Made by a program: the position numbers and the translations under genes
Origin: a virus
Virus genome (UHGV): UHGV-0114034
Direction: 5' to 3' (one strand)
DNA length: 31,989 nucleotides
In this document: in pieces, positions 8,430-29,694 of the stretch
Layout: each line of letters begins with the position of its first letter
How positions within the stretch are numbered: position 1 is the stretch's first letter
Notes under the pieces: generated by a model
The model's database searches: none
Seen by the model: only the letters and a program-made list of their open reading frames with translations
What the model was told of the DNA's origin: nothing

Positions 8430-9077
8430 TCACCCAAACGTCTCTTCAGGCCACTGCGCCTTAACTACCTTGCCTATGATGCGGCAGCTATGGTCGCAAT
8501 CCAGGGTTCTATATGCCGGGTTTAAAGGTACCAGGTAACTAACCCCTGCATCCTTCTCATACTTCTTGAACGTTGCCTCTGAATCACCATTTGCAGAAGC
8601 CACGCAGAAATCCCCAGACTCTACCGGCTCAGCCGGATCAACGAGTATCAGCATGCCTTCCGGAAAACTTGGACGAACCCCCTGAGGCGCCGTCATTGAA
8701 TGCCCCTTCACCTCAAGCCAGAAAGCTTTTTCGCTGGCTTTTGTGGTCGTTGGGACCCATGCCTTTGCATCGCTGGCTGTGTAGCTTCCCACCTCCGAAA
8801 ATGGCCCAGCCTGCACTGAAGAAAATAACGGGTATTCATATTGGCGAAATACGGCGTCTGAATCCTCGCCAAACATTATTTTTGCCGGAGATACGCCGAG
8901 TGCCGCCCCAAGAACCAGCGCGTCATCCGCGCTAACCTTTCTTGTTCCTAACTCGTAGTTCCCCAGGCGTGAAGGCGCAGCCCAGCCGCAAAGCTTGGCC
9001 AATTGAGCCTGGCTAAGTCCTTTAGCTTCTCTAAGGGACTTGATCCTTTCCCCGATAATTTCATGCATCGTTTTCAT
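8430..9077 (-). CDS. cI: CI-type prophage repressor (HTH plus S24 LexA-like peptidase domain)
   Basis: N-terminal HTH ([22 protein letters not shown]) and C-terminal S24 autocleavage domain (KGHSM); divergent from cro across operators. Start may be the second ATG at 9068 (AAGGGA 8 nt upstream). Confidence 0.85.
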
Positions 9078-15425: not shown

Positions 15426-15500
15426 GGGTCAGTCGTATAAAGGTCATTACGGAAGGCTGTTAACCTTCTTATCGTGGTTCGAGTCCACGCTGTCCCGCCA
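15426..15500 (+). tRNA. tRNA-Asn (anticodon GTT), one acceptor-stem mismatch
   Basis: Hand-folded 75-nt cloverleaf: perfect anticodon stem GAAGG/CCTTC, loop CTGTTAA, T-arm CGTGG-TTCGAGT-CCACG, discriminator G, encoded CCA. Confidence 0.6.
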
Positions 15501-15505
15501 AACAT

Positions 15506-15581
15506 GCTGGTTTAGCTCCAATGGTAGAGCGGTCGCCTTGTAAGCGAATGGGTAGCGGTTCAAGTCCGTTAACCAGCACCA
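15506..15581 (+). tRNA. tRNA-Thr (anticodon TGT)
   Basis: Hand-folded 76-nt cloverleaf: acceptor GCTGGTT/AACCAGC, D-arm GCTC-CAATGGTA-GAGC, anticodon loop CTTGTAA, discriminator A, encoded CCA. Confidence 0.6.
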
Positions 15582-26053: not shown

Positions 26054-26554
26054 ATGTCTGTATTGACGCAAGGTACGCAGCTCTTTGTGCTCGTAAAAGG
26101 CGAGGTGAGCGAAGTTGAATGTATCACTGCATTTTCACCCGGCAGCAATCCGGCTGACCAGATTGAAGACACCTGTCTTTCTGAACGCTTTGATCGCAGC
26201 TATAAGCGTGGTCTTCGAACGCCTGGCACAGCATCACTGACGCTTAACGCTGATCCTAAAAATACCAGCCACATCATGCTCTACAACCTGTCCATTTCGG
26301 ACGACGAAGAGGATCAGGACCTGACCTTCGCGATTGGATGGTCAGACGGAACCGCATCGCCAACTGCGGCTGAAAATGGTGCATCCGGTGCAGTCGATGG
26401 CCTGGTGCTACCTGATAGCCGCACATGGTTCGTATTCAAAGGCTATGTGTCCGACTTCCCGTTTGATTTTGCAGCAAACACGGTTGTTTCTACTTCTGCA
26501 TCTATCCAGCGCTCCGGCTCTGCTGTATGGGTGCCAAAAGTCGTGACCCCATAA
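26054..26554 (+). CDS. major tail tube protein
   Basis: 166-aa ORF upstream of the G/GT chaperone pair and tape measure. Confidence 0.7.
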
Positions 26555-26592
26555 AATCAGGGCGGCAACGCCCTTATTAATCAGGATTAATA

Positions 26593-27078
26593 ATGAAATT
26601 AACACTTGATGCACTCAAGGAGTCCGGCGCGTTTACCGGTCGCCCGGTTGAGAAAGAAATCACCTGGACGCAAGGCGATAAAAAAATCACCGCGACCGTG
26701 TATGTTCGCCCGATGGGTTATCACACAGCAACGTCCGATGTGCTGGCTTTTGGTGGTAAGGTCGATGGTGTGGCAGGGCGTATCGCCGCATCCATCTGCG
26801 ATGAACATGGTAAACCCATCTTCACCCCGGCTGACATTACTGGTGAGGCAGATCCTGAACGTGGTGCACTGGATGGCGGCCTGACGGTAGCACTGCTTCT
26901 GGCCATTCAGGAAGTTAACGATCTGGGAAAGACTTCGAGCTCAGCGCCGAAGACGAATTCTGGTGCGAGCTCGTCCTCAACGGAATCGGAGGCAGAACAA
27001 TCGCCGAAGCGCGGGAAGTCCTCTCATTCAAAGAGTCCCAACTCTGGGCAAAGTACCGGGAACGATACGGGAGTCTGA
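26593..27078 (+). CDS. tail assembly chaperone G (zero-frame product)
   Basis: 161-aa ORF containing slippery heptamer GGGAAAG; zero-frame continuation is a Ser/Thr-rich tail. Confidence 0.6.
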   Translation: MKLTLDALKESGAFTGRPVEKEITWTQGDKKITATVYVRPMGYHTATSDVLAFGGKVDGVAGRIAASICDEHGKPIFTPADITGEADPERGALDGGLTVALLLAIQEVNDLGKTSSSAPKTNSGASSSSTESEAEQSPKRGKSSHSKSPNSGQSTGNDTGV

Positions 27079-27254
27079 ACCCTATGTTGCGGGTTGAGTG
27101 GGGTGCCGGGCTGGTGAGCAGCATGATAGCCAACGTTAACAGAGACCCCAAGCGCCCACCATTCAACCCGACCGATTTCACACTTCACTTTACCAAAGTC
27201 AAAGCTGCTGATGGACCAATCTCATTAGAGGAAGCCAGAGCCAGCTGGACATAA
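26593..27254 (+). CDS. tail assembly chaperone GT fusion via programmed -1 frameshift at 26925-26931
   Basis: -1 frame after GGGAAAG encodes a T-like domain (ELVLNGIGGRTIAEAREV...GSLNPMLRVEWG...) ending TAA at 27252-27254. Confidence 0.65.
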
Positions 27255-27273
27255 TGCCGCCAACGGAGAGTTT

Positions 27274-29694
27274 ATGGCTTCCAAATCACTGGGCACGCTG
27301 ACGATCGACCTGATTGCCAAAGTGGGCGGTTTTGTCTCAGGCCTCTCGCAGGCTGAGCGAGCTTCACAAAAATGGCGTAAGCAGGTAAAGGAGGATGCCG
27401 CTGCCGCTGCAGCTGCCATGACCGGATTCGCAACAGCAGTCGGGGCTGCAGCCATCGGAGCCGGAGTGGCGGGGTATAACCTGCTCAAAACCACTTCACG
27501 TCAGATTACCGAATCAGACCGCTGGGCAAAGTCACTTAACATGTCCACGCAGTCCCTGTTAGCCTGGCAATATGCTGCAGAAAAAGCAGGTGTTTCCGGC
27601 GATCAGATGGCCGATATCTTTAAAGATGTCGGAGACAAAATCGGTGATGCCGTTCTTAATAAATCTGGTGAGGCGGTCGGTGCGCTGGACGCTCTGGGTT
27701 TGTCGGCTAAGAAACTGGCCGGAGAATCTCCCGACAAGCAACTCCTGGCTATCAGCGACGCACTGGAGAAAGTTAAGTCCAACGCCGAGAAGACTACCAT
27801 CCTGGAGAGTCTGGGTAATGACCTGTCAAAGATGCTGCCGCTCCTGGACAATGGCAGTGAAAAGCTGCGTCAGTATATGGATGCCGCGAAGAAGTTTGGT
27901 GTGGCGCCCGATGACGCAGATATTGAAAAGCTGGTCAGAGTCAACGCCCTGTTTGAGGATATGGAGACGCAGGTCAACGGCGTCAAAATTGAACTTGCTG
28001 CAGGGCTCGCCAGCGTAGATTTGAGTGGGCTCCAGAAGTCTATTGGAGATATGGGGGATGTATTTAAAGACCCGGCTGTTATTCAGGGTCTGACTGATCT
28101 GGTTGGTGGGGTAGTGGACCTTGCCACCTGGCTGGTAAGGGTAGGAGCCGAGGCCGGAAAGCTGATAGACCAGTACAAAGGTGGGAGTTCGGTCGGCCTG
28201 AATGCCTCCATTCCAGAAATTGAACGGCGCATCAAGAACCTGAATGCAGATCTCGATGATAAAGGCATACTGGCGAGTTTCAACAGAATAGGTATGGACG
28301 TATCCGGTAAGGAGGCCGAAAGGGCTGAGCTCCAGAGGCGACTGGCCTTTTTGAGAAACTCCCAATCTACTCTACCGGAAATAAAACTGCCCGAGCCAGT
28401 CAAAACAAACTATACCCTTGGCGCCGGGGAAACAAACGGTAAGCCGCAAAAAAATACCTCTGGTCAGAAACTGGATTCAGCGTTTAAAAGCGCTGAGCGC
28501 AGTTACATGCGTCAGATTGAGCTGATCGATACCACCGGCAAAAAAACTGCTGTGGTGACCGAGCAGCAAAAACTGCAGTTCGATATAGCTGACGGCAAGT
28601 TGCAGGGGCTTAACGAAACCCAGAAGAAACGACTTGCGTCTCTGGCTCAGGAAGTTGATCGCCTTAATGCCGTCAAAAAAGCTAATGAAGAAAACGCGAA
28701 GGTAGCGGCGTTCGTGGCAAATCTGCAGGAGCAGAACGAGAATGCACGTGCAGATTTGGGCGTGGATATTCAGGGGGCCGGACTCGGTGACAAGCAGCGT
28801 GAAAGGCTGAGGGAAAGGCTGAGTATAGAGCGCAGTTATCTCGATCAGCAGCGCGATCTGCAAAAGCAGTATCAGTCAGGAGATATCAGCCAGACAGTTT
28901 ATGACCGCGAAACCCAGGCATTAAAGGATGCGCAAGCTGAGAGGCTGGGCATCCAGGAGGATTATTACAGTCAAATTGATGCGCTGCAGTCTGACTGGGT
29001 GACTGGCGCCAGAGACGGTCTCGCTGACTGGGTAGATGATTCAACTAACTATGCGACGCTGGCGGCGGACGCTATGAAAAGCGCGCTTTCCGGTATCAGC
29101 AGCAATATCGTCGACATGCTCAACGGCAATAAAGCGAGCTGGAAAGACTGGGGTGTCAGTGTTCTGAAAATCATCGAACAGGTGATGGTTAACATGATGA
29201 TCGCCAATGCAGCCAGCTCGATAGGCTCATTGTTCGGTGGTGCCGCATCGTCTTCCGCCAGCAGCGGTACTGCGATTCAGTCCTACGGGGCGAGCCTGCA
29301 ATTCAACGCCAAAGGCGGCGTTTACTCTTCTGCCGATCTCAGTCAGTACAGTAACTCTGTCGTCAGCTCTCCAACACTGTTTGCCTTTGCCAAAGGGGCC
29401 GGATTGATGGGGGAGGCTGGGCCGGAGGCTATTATGCCACTGACCCGCGCCGCTGACGGATCGCTGGGCGTGCGTGCTATGGGAATCTCAGGCTTAACAC
29501 CGGGTGGTAGTAGTGCTCCTCAGGTCAGTATTCAGATTGATGGCAATGGGAATACCCAGACTCAGGCTAGCGGTGGATATGAGCAATTCGGGCGGGAGGT
29601 AGGTAGTTTTGTTGATCGGCGATACCGCGAGTTGATAGGCCGTGACCTTTCACCCGGTGGCGCGGTCTGGAATCTGGCAAAAGGAGGGCGGTGA
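27274..29694 (+). CDS. tail tape measure protein
   Basis: 806-aa coiled-coil-rich ORF with Gly/Ala-rich and hydrophobic segments, after G/GT. Confidence 0.85.
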   Translation: MASKSLGTLTIDLIAKVGGFVSGLSQAERASQKWRKQVKEDAAAAAAAMTGFATAVGAAAIGAGVAGYNLLKTTSRQITESDRWAKSLNMSTQSLLAWQYAAEKAGVSGDQMADIFKDVGDKIGDAVLNKSGEAVGALDALGLSAKKLAGESPDKQLLAISDALEKVKSNAEKTTILESLGNDLSKMLPLLDNGSEKLRQYMDAAKKFGVAPDDADIEKLVRVNALFEDMETQVNGVKIELAAGLASVDLSGLQKSIGDMGDVFKDPAVIQGLTDLVGGVVDLATWLVRVGAEAGKLIDQYKGGSSVGLNASIPEIERRIKNLNADLDDKGILASFNRIGMDVSGKEAERAELQRRLAFLRNSQSTLPEIKLPEPVKTNYTLGAGETNGKPQKNTSGQKLDSAFKSAERSYMRQIELIDTTGKKTAVVTEQQKLQFDIADGKLQGLNETQKKRLASLAQEVDRLNAVKKANEENAKVAAFVANLQEQNENARADLGVDIQGAGLGDKQRERLRERLSIERSYLDQQRDLQKQYQSGDISQTVYDRETQALKDAQAERLGIQEDYYSQIDALQSDWVTGARDGLADWVDDSTNYATLAADAMKSALSGISSNIVDMLNGNKASWKDWGVSVLKIIEQVMVNMMIANAASSIGSLFGGAASSSASSGTAIQSYGASLQFNAKGGVYSSADLSQYSNSVVSSPTLFAFAKGAGLMGEAGPEAIMPLTRAADGSLGVRAMGISGLTPGGSSAPQVSIQIDGNGNTQTQASGGYEQFGREVGSFVDRRYRELIGRDLSPGGAVWNLAKGGR

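Follow-up and report, generated by a model that had tools for sequence, protein, structure and literature searches.

Locus and gene neighbourhood

The locus described here lies in the virus genome UHGV-0114034, of which a stretch of 31,989 nucleotides was analysed (hereafter the window). Two overlapping open reading frames, G and T, are flanked by the gene for the major tail tube protein on the 5′ side and by the gene for the tape measure protein on the 3′ side. The tail tube gene (26054..26554, + strand) lies directly upstream of G, matches Pfam family PF16460 (Phage_TTP_11) with E = 8.4e-66 and is equivalent to HK022 gp12, which is annotated as 'major tail subunit'; the tape measure gene (27274..29694, + strand) matches PF09718 (Tape_meas_lam_C) and is equivalent to HK022 gp16. 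G (26593..27078, + strand) is the zero-frame ORF of 161 residues; it matches PF16459 (Phage_TAC_13) over residues 6–109 with E = 2.7e-34 and corresponds to HK022 gp13. Since it belongs to PF16459 and BLASTP gave no detectable similarity to lambda G, it is regarded as a tail assembly chaperone by family name and position and not as a sequence relative of lambda gpG. A sequence search of the PDB with G returned nothing at E ≤ 1.

Over 1247 nt the locus is 99.8% identical to phage HK022 (AF069308), and positions 26054–27300 share 99.4–99.8% nucleotide identity with HK022, HK140, mEpX2 and mEp235. The HK022 record gives gp13 as a CDS of 486 nt (161 residues) and gp14 as a two-piece join spanning 662 nt, with the same coordinates. 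Because of this near-identity to gp13/gp14, and because the frameshift is annotated in GenBank, the G/GT tail-assembly frameshift is already known and the window adds no new system. The genome in the window is a mosaic, and its early region resembles other lambdoid phages.

Slip site and the -1 frame

The slippery heptamer G_GGA_AAG, a -1 programmed frameshift site by sequence and register, occupies 26925..26931 (+ strand), where the initial annotation had placed it. Counted from the ATG at 26593, the zero-frame codons at this point are CTG-GGA-AAG, giving the proper register X_XXY_YYZ. The shift window is limited on its 5′ side by a TAA stop in the -1 (T) frame at 26916..26918 (+ strand), two codons before the heptamer, and from 26919 the -1 frame is open up to the TAA at 27252–27254. 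The T part that follows the slip (26931..27254, + strand) matches PF06223, 'Minor tail protein T' (Phage_tail_T), with 30.6 bits against a cut-off of 25.9, bearing out the T-like domain ending at 27254 that had been proposed from the sequence. The GT fusion, join(26593..26931, 26931..27254), comprises 220 residues, reads ...LGK-DFELSAEDEFWCELVLNGIGGR at its junction and is the equivalent of HK022 gp14. No second canonical heptamer was seen on reading the overlap sequence.

In several GenBank and RefSeq records the T part appears as a short ORF of its own, which would suit a T protein initiated separately at the internal ATG (27084) with no frameshift. This is, however, the first ATG in the T frame and stands inside the conserved domain, 53 codons into the conserved T sequence, so a product started there would lose 53 conserved N-terminal residues, with the most conserved stretch, DEFWCELVLNGIGGRTIAEA, among them. 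The register of the heptamer, moreover, never varies, and exactly two codons ahead of it the -1 frame becomes open. We regard separate initiation as scarcely credible; the -1 ORF is without a plausible start of its own.

Of 136 sequences, 129 have an in-frame GGGAAA(G/A) with a T-like -1 ORF downstream. The remaining seven were left unscored: two had been set aside on purpose (a duplicate HK022 record and lambda), four yielded no site (two of them short loci and one reaching only ~430 bases beyond the start of G) and one had a degraded site. Essentially all of the 109 unique relatives retain the heptamer, and relatives that carry it come from Enterobacterales, Pseudomonas, Halomonas, Marinobacter and Stenotrophomonas. 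Down to 48% protein identity the analysable relatives have GGGAAAG, or GGGAAAA in two cases, the sole exception being L019 with the degraded site GGGGAAG; apart from this sequence, the earlier description of the site as conserved holds in register throughout. The assignment as a G/GT-type -1 frameshift is likewise supported by the gene order, the lambda heptamer, the startless -1 ORF, the conservation of the heptamer and the join in the HK022 record.

Upstream of the heptamer lies a Shine–Dalgarno-like AGGAAGT (26909..26915, + strand), the purine core of which, AGGAAG, ends 10 nt before it. Of 63 representatives, 54 have an AGGA, GGAG or GAGG motif at -16 to -14 relative to the heptamer. The mean energy of the anti-Shine–Dalgarno duplex across the family is -8.3 kcal/mol, compared with -7.1 kcal/mol for the synonymous null (Wilcoxon P = 0.003, uncorrected for phylogeny) and -3.1 kcal/mol for other windows in G; in the window itself the duplex is weak (-4.9 kcal/mol). 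From these sequence patterns the element is a possible upstream stimulator of frameshifting of the dnaX type. On the downstream side, a minimum-free-energy fold predicts a hairpin on two copies of GAGCTC (Glu-Leu) at 26936..26973 (+ strand), 4 nt beyond the heptamer. Its z-score is only -1.06, and in 38 relatives 67.4% of cells are paired, compared with 66.0% in shuffles; compensatory changes are not in excess. On the z-score and the pair counts, this hairpin was rejected as a conserved stimulator.

The zero-frame tail

Beyond the heptamer the zero frame continues for 48 sense codons (144 nt) and ends at the TGA at 27076–27078. The resulting tail of G, TSSSAPKTNSGASSSSTESEAEQSPKRGKSSHSKSPNSGQSTGNDTGV, within which TNSGASSSSTESEAEQSPK is one peptide, contains 16 Ser, 5 Thr and 4 Lys. 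The Ser/Thr/Lys-rich composition and the end point at 27078 had both been recognized in the initial annotation, whose figure of about 49 codons includes the stop. In an AlphaFold model of G, residues 1–113 (26593–26931) are folded, while residues 114–161 (26932–27075) have pLDDT values of 28–42 and are without secondary structure; the tail is thus predicted to be disordered. Counted by hand from the wobble bases at Gly48 and Ser49, the last two tail residues are mostly Glu-Ala and not Ala-Ala; an idea of a C-terminal degron considered tails ending in -AA or -EA.

When the T codons were resampled synonymously, a tail of at least 48 codons arose in 9.8% of trials (P = 0.098), and the proposal that the tail is significantly longer than chance was dropped for the single sequence. 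Among the 109 unique relatives, tails of 3, 4, 6, 12–14, 21–22, 28–32, 37, 47–48 and 55 codons occur. In 122 representatives of PF16459, clustered at 50% identity, the median tail is 13 residues (range 0–59), and 36 of the 122 have tails of at least 20 residues. Tail-chaperone frameshifts in general have their stop, on average, 26–36 nt past the slip site (PMC10885494). The tail is therefore unusually long, as had been claimed, relative to this mean and to the five codons of lambda; within PF16459 it is not.

Sixty unique sequences have tails of 47–48 codons, exactly 48 in 56 of them, down to ~72% protein identity, and such tails are present in at least five deep enterobacterial lineages. By the refuting condition set in the initial annotation, the extension is in this sense kept in close relatives, whereas many other relatives have only 3–30 codons. 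When a tree is computed from the non-overlap parts, at least eight truncated lineages fall among those with 47/48-codon tails, and one 22-codon tail is nested within the 48-codon clade. Long tails are also found elsewhere: 28–32 codons in Pseudomonas, 37 in Halomonas and a Synechococcus phage and 55 in Salinicola. Two isolated phages of the family have short tails, KpF5 of 3 codons and D3 of 6 codons. Because length varies, with repeated independent truncations, neither the length nor the sequence of the tail appears to be essential. The truncations appear to be tolerated, many of the relatives being prophages of uncertain viability, and the retention of exactly 48 codons could mean that this length is favoured, beyond mere tolerance.

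Constraint on the silent sites of T

The overlap at 26932..27075 (+ strand) is read in two frames, 48 zero-frame codons lying over T codons 3–51, and each wobble base of the T frame falls in the middle of a zero-frame codon. In the window all 12 Phe, Leu, Val and Ile codons of T within the overlap are NTC, reading as Ser in the G frame; the probability of this is ~1e-7 by neighbouring codon usage, and CTC accounts for only 15.5% of Leu codons in neighbouring genes. Synonymous resampling gives a matching result for zero-frame codons whose second base is T or C (xTx and xCx): one xTx codon was observed compared with 11.3 expected, and 23 xCx codons compared with 11.1 expected (P < 2e-4 in each case).

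The same pattern is found in the relatives. The third position of T codons is T in 3–8% of cases where the zero frame is open, in 13–27% in the homologous regions past the stop and in 18–32% in the G domain. When the relatives are grouped by tail length, C enrichment at T-frame wobbles is confined to the stretch in which the zero frame is open, and the switch follows the zero-frame stop in the 12–14, 28–32 and 47–48 codon classes. At two-fold Y-ending codons C/(C+T) is 0.93 where the zero frame is open and 0.53–0.67 elsewhere. In open tails, by length class, the observed and expected numbers of xTx codons are 0/10.8, 8/34, 25/95 and 55/229, compared with 222/285.5 in the homologous region past the stop and 735/789 in the later part of T. 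These sequences share ancestry, so that pooled P values overstate their independence, and the per-sequence tests draw codon usage from only about 500–2000 flanking codons. The mild bias that persists past the stop (xTx at 0.78 of expected) may go back to an ancestor with an open frame or be a weak regional property unrelated to the tail.

Across the overlap the protein sequence of the T frame is conserved. Sequences of the 48-codon clade show reduced silent diversity at Y-ending and four-fold sites and not at R-ending sites, which vary equally freely inside and outside the overlap and where both alternatives give polar residues. In this clade, silent diversity gave no sign of residue-specific constraint on the tail beyond the demands of the T frame. 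To judge from the sequence comparisons, both frames of the overlap are under selection, the zero frame for composition, and the composition of the tail is clearly selected, far beyond chance.

These results bear directly on whether the tail could be an untranslated or irrelevant open stretch that is free of selection. Its length by itself would be compatible with such an origin (P = 0.098), but its composition is not: almost every representative whose tail has 22 codons or more departs far from the synonymous null, to which the control regions fit much more closely, and the 12 of 12 NTC codons of the window and the wobble bias of the open frame, unmatched in relatives beyond their zero-frame stops, point the same way. 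An origin by pure chance is accordingly extremely improbable.

The C-rich, T-poor wobbles might instead serve the RNA, as part of a structure that stimulates frameshifting or through an effect on translation speed past the slip site, the open frame being a side effect. Such a role would accommodate the hairpin predicted 4 nt past the heptamer and the ~86 nt beyond the slip site, which are unusually conserved in DNA even in Acinetobacter phages (80% identity). The hairpin is, however, without covariation support (z = -1.06), and conditioning on the absence of stops leaves the choice of C over T at two-fold codons unexplained. An RNA element is disfavoured because the bias runs through 48 codons and breaks off, in each length class, where the zero frame stops, and we consider it very unlikely. 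The striking DNA conservation just past the slip site is attributed to the footprint that the run-on of G leaves on the silent sites of T.

Functional interpretation

A further proposal gives the tail a function as a disordered module of G, its composition and, in the HK022 clade, its length being positively maintained. For G bound along the tape measure protein it might be an entropic spacer or solubilizer; it might also be a handle by which the turnover or release of G is controlled. The clear selection on composition is in keeping with such a role, as are the persistence of 47–48 codons in at least five deep enterobacterial lineages (60 unique sequences) and the recurrence of long Ser/Thr/Ala/Pro-rich tails, of up to 59 residues, in distant branches. 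Against it stand the spread of lengths from 0 to 59 residues with repeated truncations, some of them recent, the tails of merely 3 and 6 codons in the isolated phages KpF5 and D3 and the finding of no residue-specific constraint beyond what the T frame forces. Tails of 3–6 codons also avoid hydrophobic residues (0 observed compared with 10.8 expected), which fits the avoidance of harm better than a module. Overall we think a dedicated function rather unlikely. A related and equally tentative idea is that the slip site is a fork between two useful C-termini, with a disordered tail on ~97% of molecules and the T domain on ~3%. If so, the tail would adjust the way in which G coats the tape measure protein, keeps it soluble or comes off it, and lineages that have repeatedly lost or kept the tail would differ in assembly strategy.

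The interpretation that we favour, with a probability of roughly two in three, is that the locus is an HK022-type G/GT pair in which the tail would be a translated, tolerated, hydrophilic extension of G. Most ribosomes would stay in frame and produce G, a 113-residue chaperone domain followed by the 48-residue tail, while a minority would slip back one base at G_GGA_AAG and produce the 220-residue GT with its T domain; by analogy, the frameshift would occur at a low, lambda-like rate. The tail is not a domain: it is the T-coding sequence read one base later up to the first zero-frame stop, which the T-frame Leu codon CTG (27075–27077) and the following A create. Lambda and many relatives end G 3–5 codons past the slip because the Leu in their Glu-Leu-Ser/Thr/Asp/Asn is CTG or CTA; HK022 uses CTC there and at every later hazardous Leu, so that the zero frame stays open.

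Under the interpretation of a tolerated extension, the tail would be selected for composition, and not for sequence or length, because it sits on the abundant product. The silent wobbles of T would be held at C (or at A/G) and away from T; the hydrophobic residues of T would consequently read as Ser, and the tail would stay hydrophilic and disordered. The richness of the tail in Ser would then arise because hydrophobic T codons with an enforced final C give Ser in the other frame. The constraint probably acts through the solubility or harmlessness of G, and the tail is likely to be without a specific function.

The run-on of G thus leaves a measurable footprint on the silent sites of T that stops exactly at the zero-frame stop. 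Drawn from sequence alone, this footprint is evidence both that the tail is translated and that its chemistry matters. In the literature searched, which did not extend to Xu et al. (2004), nothing was found on the HK022 gp13 tail or on silent-site constraint in G/T overlaps. The results also call for caution in annotation: in this chaperone family the stop can lie five times as far from the slip site as usual, a regime in which predictors such as PRFect miss sites, and many records still give T as a separate short ORF.

Comparison with known systems

The closest counterpart is gp13/gp14 of HK022, from which the G/GT of the window shows no difference of substance. The -1 programmed frameshift of lambda G/GT was reportedly described by Levin, Hendrix and Casjens in 1993 and by Xu, Hendrix and Duda in 2004, 2013 and 2014. 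Lambda shares with the window the heptamer G_GGA_AAG and the slot between the major tail and tape measure genes; the two T parts belong to the same Pfam family, PF06223, with a weak BLASTP match (E = 0.019). In lambda G is abundant and GT rare, at a ratio of about 30:1, and both are absent from the virion (PMC5009743); this logic is presumed to be shared by the window. The two systems differ at the end of G. In lambda five codons (CSTVS) follow the heptamer before a TGA that arises from CTG-AGT in Glu-Leu-Ser, in agreement with the early zero-frame stop that the initial annotation had given for lambda, whereas the Leu that matches this stop-making CTG is CTC in the window and G runs on for 48 codons.

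The -1 frameshift of Escherichia coli dnaX employs an upstream Shine–Dalgarno sequence and a downstream hairpin. The window resembles it in having a Shine–Dalgarno-like element ~10 nt upstream and a predicted hairpin just downstream, and differs in that the Shine–Dalgarno-like match is weak (-4.9 kcal/mol) and the hairpin is without statistical or covariation support.

In some overprinted regions of viral genes the newer frame encodes disordered protein. The overlap in the window is similar in that 144 nt are read twice, the less constrained frame gives a low-complexity peptide that is predicted to be disordered, and silent variation is suppressed in the other frame. It differs in that the second frame here is only a C-terminal run-on of the upstream gene, and in that the constraint acts on composition only, length being freely lost.

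Locus organization

The slippery heptamer GGGAAAG lies at 26925-26931, as the initial annotation had it, within the sequence ...GAT CTG GGA AAG ACT TCG..., and the zero-frame ATG at 26593 sets its register as G_GGA_AAG. The zero-frame ORF, G (26593-27078, + strand), encodes 161 residues, ends in a TGA at 27076-27078 and matches Pfam family PF16459 ('Phage tail assembly chaperone, TAC') over residues 6-109 with E = 2.7e-34. The -1 frame is closed by a TAA at 26916-26918 (+ strand), two codons upstream of the heptamer, and is open from there as far as the TAA at 27252-27254; the protein it encodes scores above the curated threshold for PF06223 ('Minor tail protein T'), confirming the T-like domain that had been placed with its end at 27254. 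The earliest ATG in this frame, at 27084, is 53 codons inside conserved T sequence. A lambda-like tail tube protein gene (26054-26554, + strand) lies upstream of G and the tape measure gene (27274-29694, + strand) downstream of T. The zero frame has 48 more sense codons after AAG, TSSSAPKTNSGASSSSTESEAEQSPKRGKSSHSKSPNSGQSTGNDTGV, of which 16 encode Ser, five Thr and four Lys; the run of about 49 Ser/Thr/Lys-rich codons to 27078 first described includes the stop. All elements of that observation were correct and its interpretation as a G/GT -1 frameshift is supported. From the sequence, we infer that most ribosomes would stay in frame and produce G with a 48-residue tail (residues 114-161), and that a few per cent would slip at G_GGA_AAG and produce a 220-residue GT fusion. 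The tail would then be a translation of the T coding sequence offset by one base, running to wherever codon choice in T first allows a stop.

Across 1247 nt spanning the tail tube gene, G and T up to the start of the tape measure gene, the window shares 99.8% identity with phage HK022 and 99.4-99.7% with HK140, mEpX2 and mEp235. In GenBank entry AF069308 (HK022), gp13 is the same 161-codon ORF and gp14 is a two-piece join with the remark 'presumed to be expressed as the downstream part of a translational frameshift product'. The feature is the HK022 gp13/gp14 frameshift, which is already annotated and therefore not novel; the single insight added here is a clear footprint of selection on tail composition. 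Among the records examined, only AF069308 carries the frameshift join; most family records (D3, KpF5, fEg-Aba01, Yong-L1-251, mEpX2, mEp235 and the E. coli prophages H55-H61) either give T as a short ORF of its own, named 'hypothetical protein' or 'tail protein', or leave it unannotated.

This G/GT pair is present in just seven of 5,426 complete E. coli genomes. As a whole, the genome in the window is a lambdoid mosaic: identity is 99.8% to mEp235/HK022 in the structural genes and 96-97% to mEpX1, Dewey and others in the early and replication region, and the best single phage record covers no more than 44% of the first 25 kb (1-25000). ARAGORN called adjoining genes for tRNA-Asn(GTT) (15426-15500, + strand) and tRNA-Thr(TGT) (15506-15581, + strand), as well as an 83-nt tRNA-Ala(CGC) (8797-8879, - strand) that may be spurious.

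Conservation of the slip site and variability of the tail

Relatives came from one-genome-per-species bacterial assemblies (53 loci) and from viral contigs (80 loci), and comprised 109 unique sequences between the slip site and the T stop. GGGAAAG is kept essentially throughout (Enterobacterales, Pseudomonas, Halomonas, Marinobacter and Stenotrophomonas), with GGGAAAA at two Stenotrophomonas loci. A prophage of Candidatus Pantoea communis (L019, 1801-1920) has a degraded site, GGGGAAG, in CTG GGG AAG; the GGA-to-GGG change is silent in G and is expected to impair the A-site slip severely, T still has an intact frame, and the locus may be a decaying prophage or a low-efficiency frameshift variant.

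Tail length varies widely. Tails of 47-48 codons occur in 60 of the 109 unique sequences, of three codons in 17, of 28-32 in 16, of 12-14 in ten and of 21-22 in two, and tails of 4, 6, 37 and 55 codons in one each. Isolated phages have tails of 6 (D3), 3 (KpF5), 23 (fEg-Aba01) and 37 codons (Synechococcus phage Yong-L1-251). Exhaustive searching among 50%-identity cluster representatives yielded 122 usable family members, with a median tail of 13 residues and a maximum of 59; tails were six residues or shorter in 48, at least 20 in 36 and at least 40 in eight. In the 3-codon relatives inspected, the stop arises from a T-frame CTG or CTA (ATA at one locus) and a next codon starting with A or G; in most of them the stop-making codon is the Leu of a Glu-Leu-Thr/Ser stretch, where relatives with long tails have CTC.

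In a neighbour-joining tree of the non-overlapping parts, based on about 120 codons of genomes that are mosaic, 47/48-codon tails appear in at least five deep enterobacterial lineages, with at least eight truncated-tail lineages interspersed among them and one 22-codon tail nested within a 48-codon clade. Conservation of the extension in related prophages thus holds for close relatives, but elsewhere it has been lost repeatedly. The sequences therefore suggest that neither the length nor the sequence of the tail can be essential, the relatives including many prophages whose viability is not established, which bears on reading truncations as tolerated. When the synonymous codons of each T sequence were resampled with the codon usage of the same locus, 9.8% of trials gave the window a zero-frame tail of 48 or more codons (median simulated tail, 15 codons), so that tail length alone is not beyond chance.

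Selection on tail composition

Each T-frame wobble base doubles as the middle base of a G-frame codon, where T specifies Phe, Leu, Ile, Met or Val and C specifies Ser, Pro, Thr or Ala. In pooled moderate-GC relatives, the T-frame third position is occupied by T in 4-6% of codons and by C in 41-58% where the zero frame is open, compared with 19-21% and 14-33% in homologous regions of relatives already past their stop; it is T in 28% in the G domain (residues 1-113). The rise in wobble T follows the zero-frame stop across length classes: along the overlap its frequency is 0.08, then 0.20 and 0.27 in the 12-14-codon class, 0.08, 0.07, then 0.13 in the 28-32-codon class and 0.03, 0.06, 0.04, then 0.22 in the 47-48-codon class, while the 3-6-codon class shows C enrichment nowhere along the overlap. 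Two-fold Y-ending codons, which cannot be biased by the absence of stops, have C/(C+T) of 0.93 in the open frame; the value is 0.67 where homologous sequence lies beyond the stop, 0.63 further along T and 0.53 in the G domain.

Relative to a synonymous null computed for each sequence, zero-frame codons carrying T in second position (xTx) in open tails numbered 0 versus 10.8 expected (3-6 codons), 8 versus 34 (12-14), 25 versus 95 (21-37) and 55 versus 229 (47-55), compared with 222 versus 285.5 in the homologous region past the stop and 735 versus 789 in the later part of T; pooled P values overstate independence because the sequences are related by descent. The window itself has one xTx codon versus 11.3 expected and 23 codons with C there (xCx) versus 11.1 (both P < 2e-4). 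In its open overlap, 12 of 12 Phe, Leu, Val and Ile codons of T end in C (CTC five times, TTC three, GTC and ATC two each) and all 12 are read as Ser in the G frame, accounting for 12 of the 16 tail serines; a thirteenth, CTG, forms the zero-frame stop. Codon frequencies in the neighbouring structural genes (CTC 15.5% for Leu, TTC 46% for Phe, ATC 44% for Ile, GTC 24% for Val) multiply to a chance of about 1e-7. In truncated-tail relatives (e.g. L017, L010 and L009) a mild bias persists past the stop (xTx 0.78 and xCx 1.30 of expected); it could be left over from an ancestor whose frame was open, in which case long tails would be ancestral and truncations derived.

Within the 48-codon clade, silent diversity is 0.11 in the overlap versus 0.34 in G at Y-ending two-fold sites and 0.31 versus 0.54 at four-fold sites. 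It is not reduced at R-ending sites (0.24 in the overlap versus 0.30), where either alternative gives a polar residue in the G frame. The constraint acts on composition and not on particular residues. An AlphaFold2 model from a 35-sequence alignment shows residues 1-113 as folded (block pLDDT 72-94 except for the loop 46-55) and predicts residues 114-161 to be disordered (pLDDT 28-42, without secondary structure). Family tails of at least ten residues are 8% hydrophobic and 52% Ser/Thr/Pro/Ala, versus 32% and 27% in family G domains. Such a profile could be read as that of a disordered module with a positive function in G, which we consider less likely for a tail of such variable length. We favour selection against hydrophobic residues, which would arise because the tail sits on the abundant product, would plausibly avoid aggregation or unwanted binding, and would in turn pin the T wobble positions and produce the Ser richness.

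The approximately 86 nt right after the slip site (26925-27010) retain 68-80% DNA identity in very distant Acinetobacter, Pseudomonas and Synechococcus phages (H31-H46), and in the Acinetobacter phages they are the sole part of the gene that matches at the DNA level (80% identity). This is consistent with a double constraint, from a conserved T N-terminus and policed wobble positions, keeping the stretch recognizable.

RNA-level elements

A hairpin predicted 4 nt past the heptamer is built on two palindromic GAGCTC (Glu-Leu) copies and has a z-score of -1.06; in 38 relatives it showed 67.4% paired cells versus 66.0% in shuffles, with no excess of compensatory changes. RNA structure as the cause of the wobble bias cannot explain a bias that ends at the zero-frame stop of each length class. 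Upstream, a Shine-Dalgarno (SD)-like motif, (C)AGGAGGT or GAGGTG in most relatives (L002-L134), derives from conserved x-Glu-Val-Asn codons. In 54 of 63 representatives it occupies a fixed position, ending about 10 nt 5' of the heptamer. Its pairing with the anti-SD has a predicted mean energy of -8.3 kcal/mol, compared with -7.1 for the synonymous null and -3.1 kcal/mol for other windows of G; the site is far closer to an SD than the remainder of G is, and slightly closer than synonymous choice predicts. The window has AGGAAGT at the same position (26909-26915, + strand), weaker than the family at -4.9 kcal/mol. The dnaX frameshift stimulator has similar spacing to the heptamer, and by analogy the motif may be a stimulator of this kind.

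Comparison with lambda and other chaperone frameshifts

Lambda has the same heptamer, but its G ends five codons later (CSTVS, TGA), in line with the early lambda stop described in the initial annotation, whereas G in the window runs for 48; the lambda stop arises from the T-frame codons GAG CTG AGT (Glu-Leu-Ser). BLASTP detected no similarity between the two G proteins and only weak similarity is seen between the T proteins. In lambda, the tape measure protein is bound by G, on its own or as part of GT, and the major tail protein by T; the ratio of G to GT, about 30:1, is critical, and the virion contains neither protein (PMC5009743). Among 2,476 chaperone frameshifts of actinophages the slip site and the zero-frame stop are on average 26 nt apart, and among the 28 phages of Xu et al. 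the average is 36 nt (both as given in PMC10885494), versus 144 nt here. The tail is thus unusually long, as first claimed, compared with lambda and typical chaperone frameshifts, but is ordinary within its own family.
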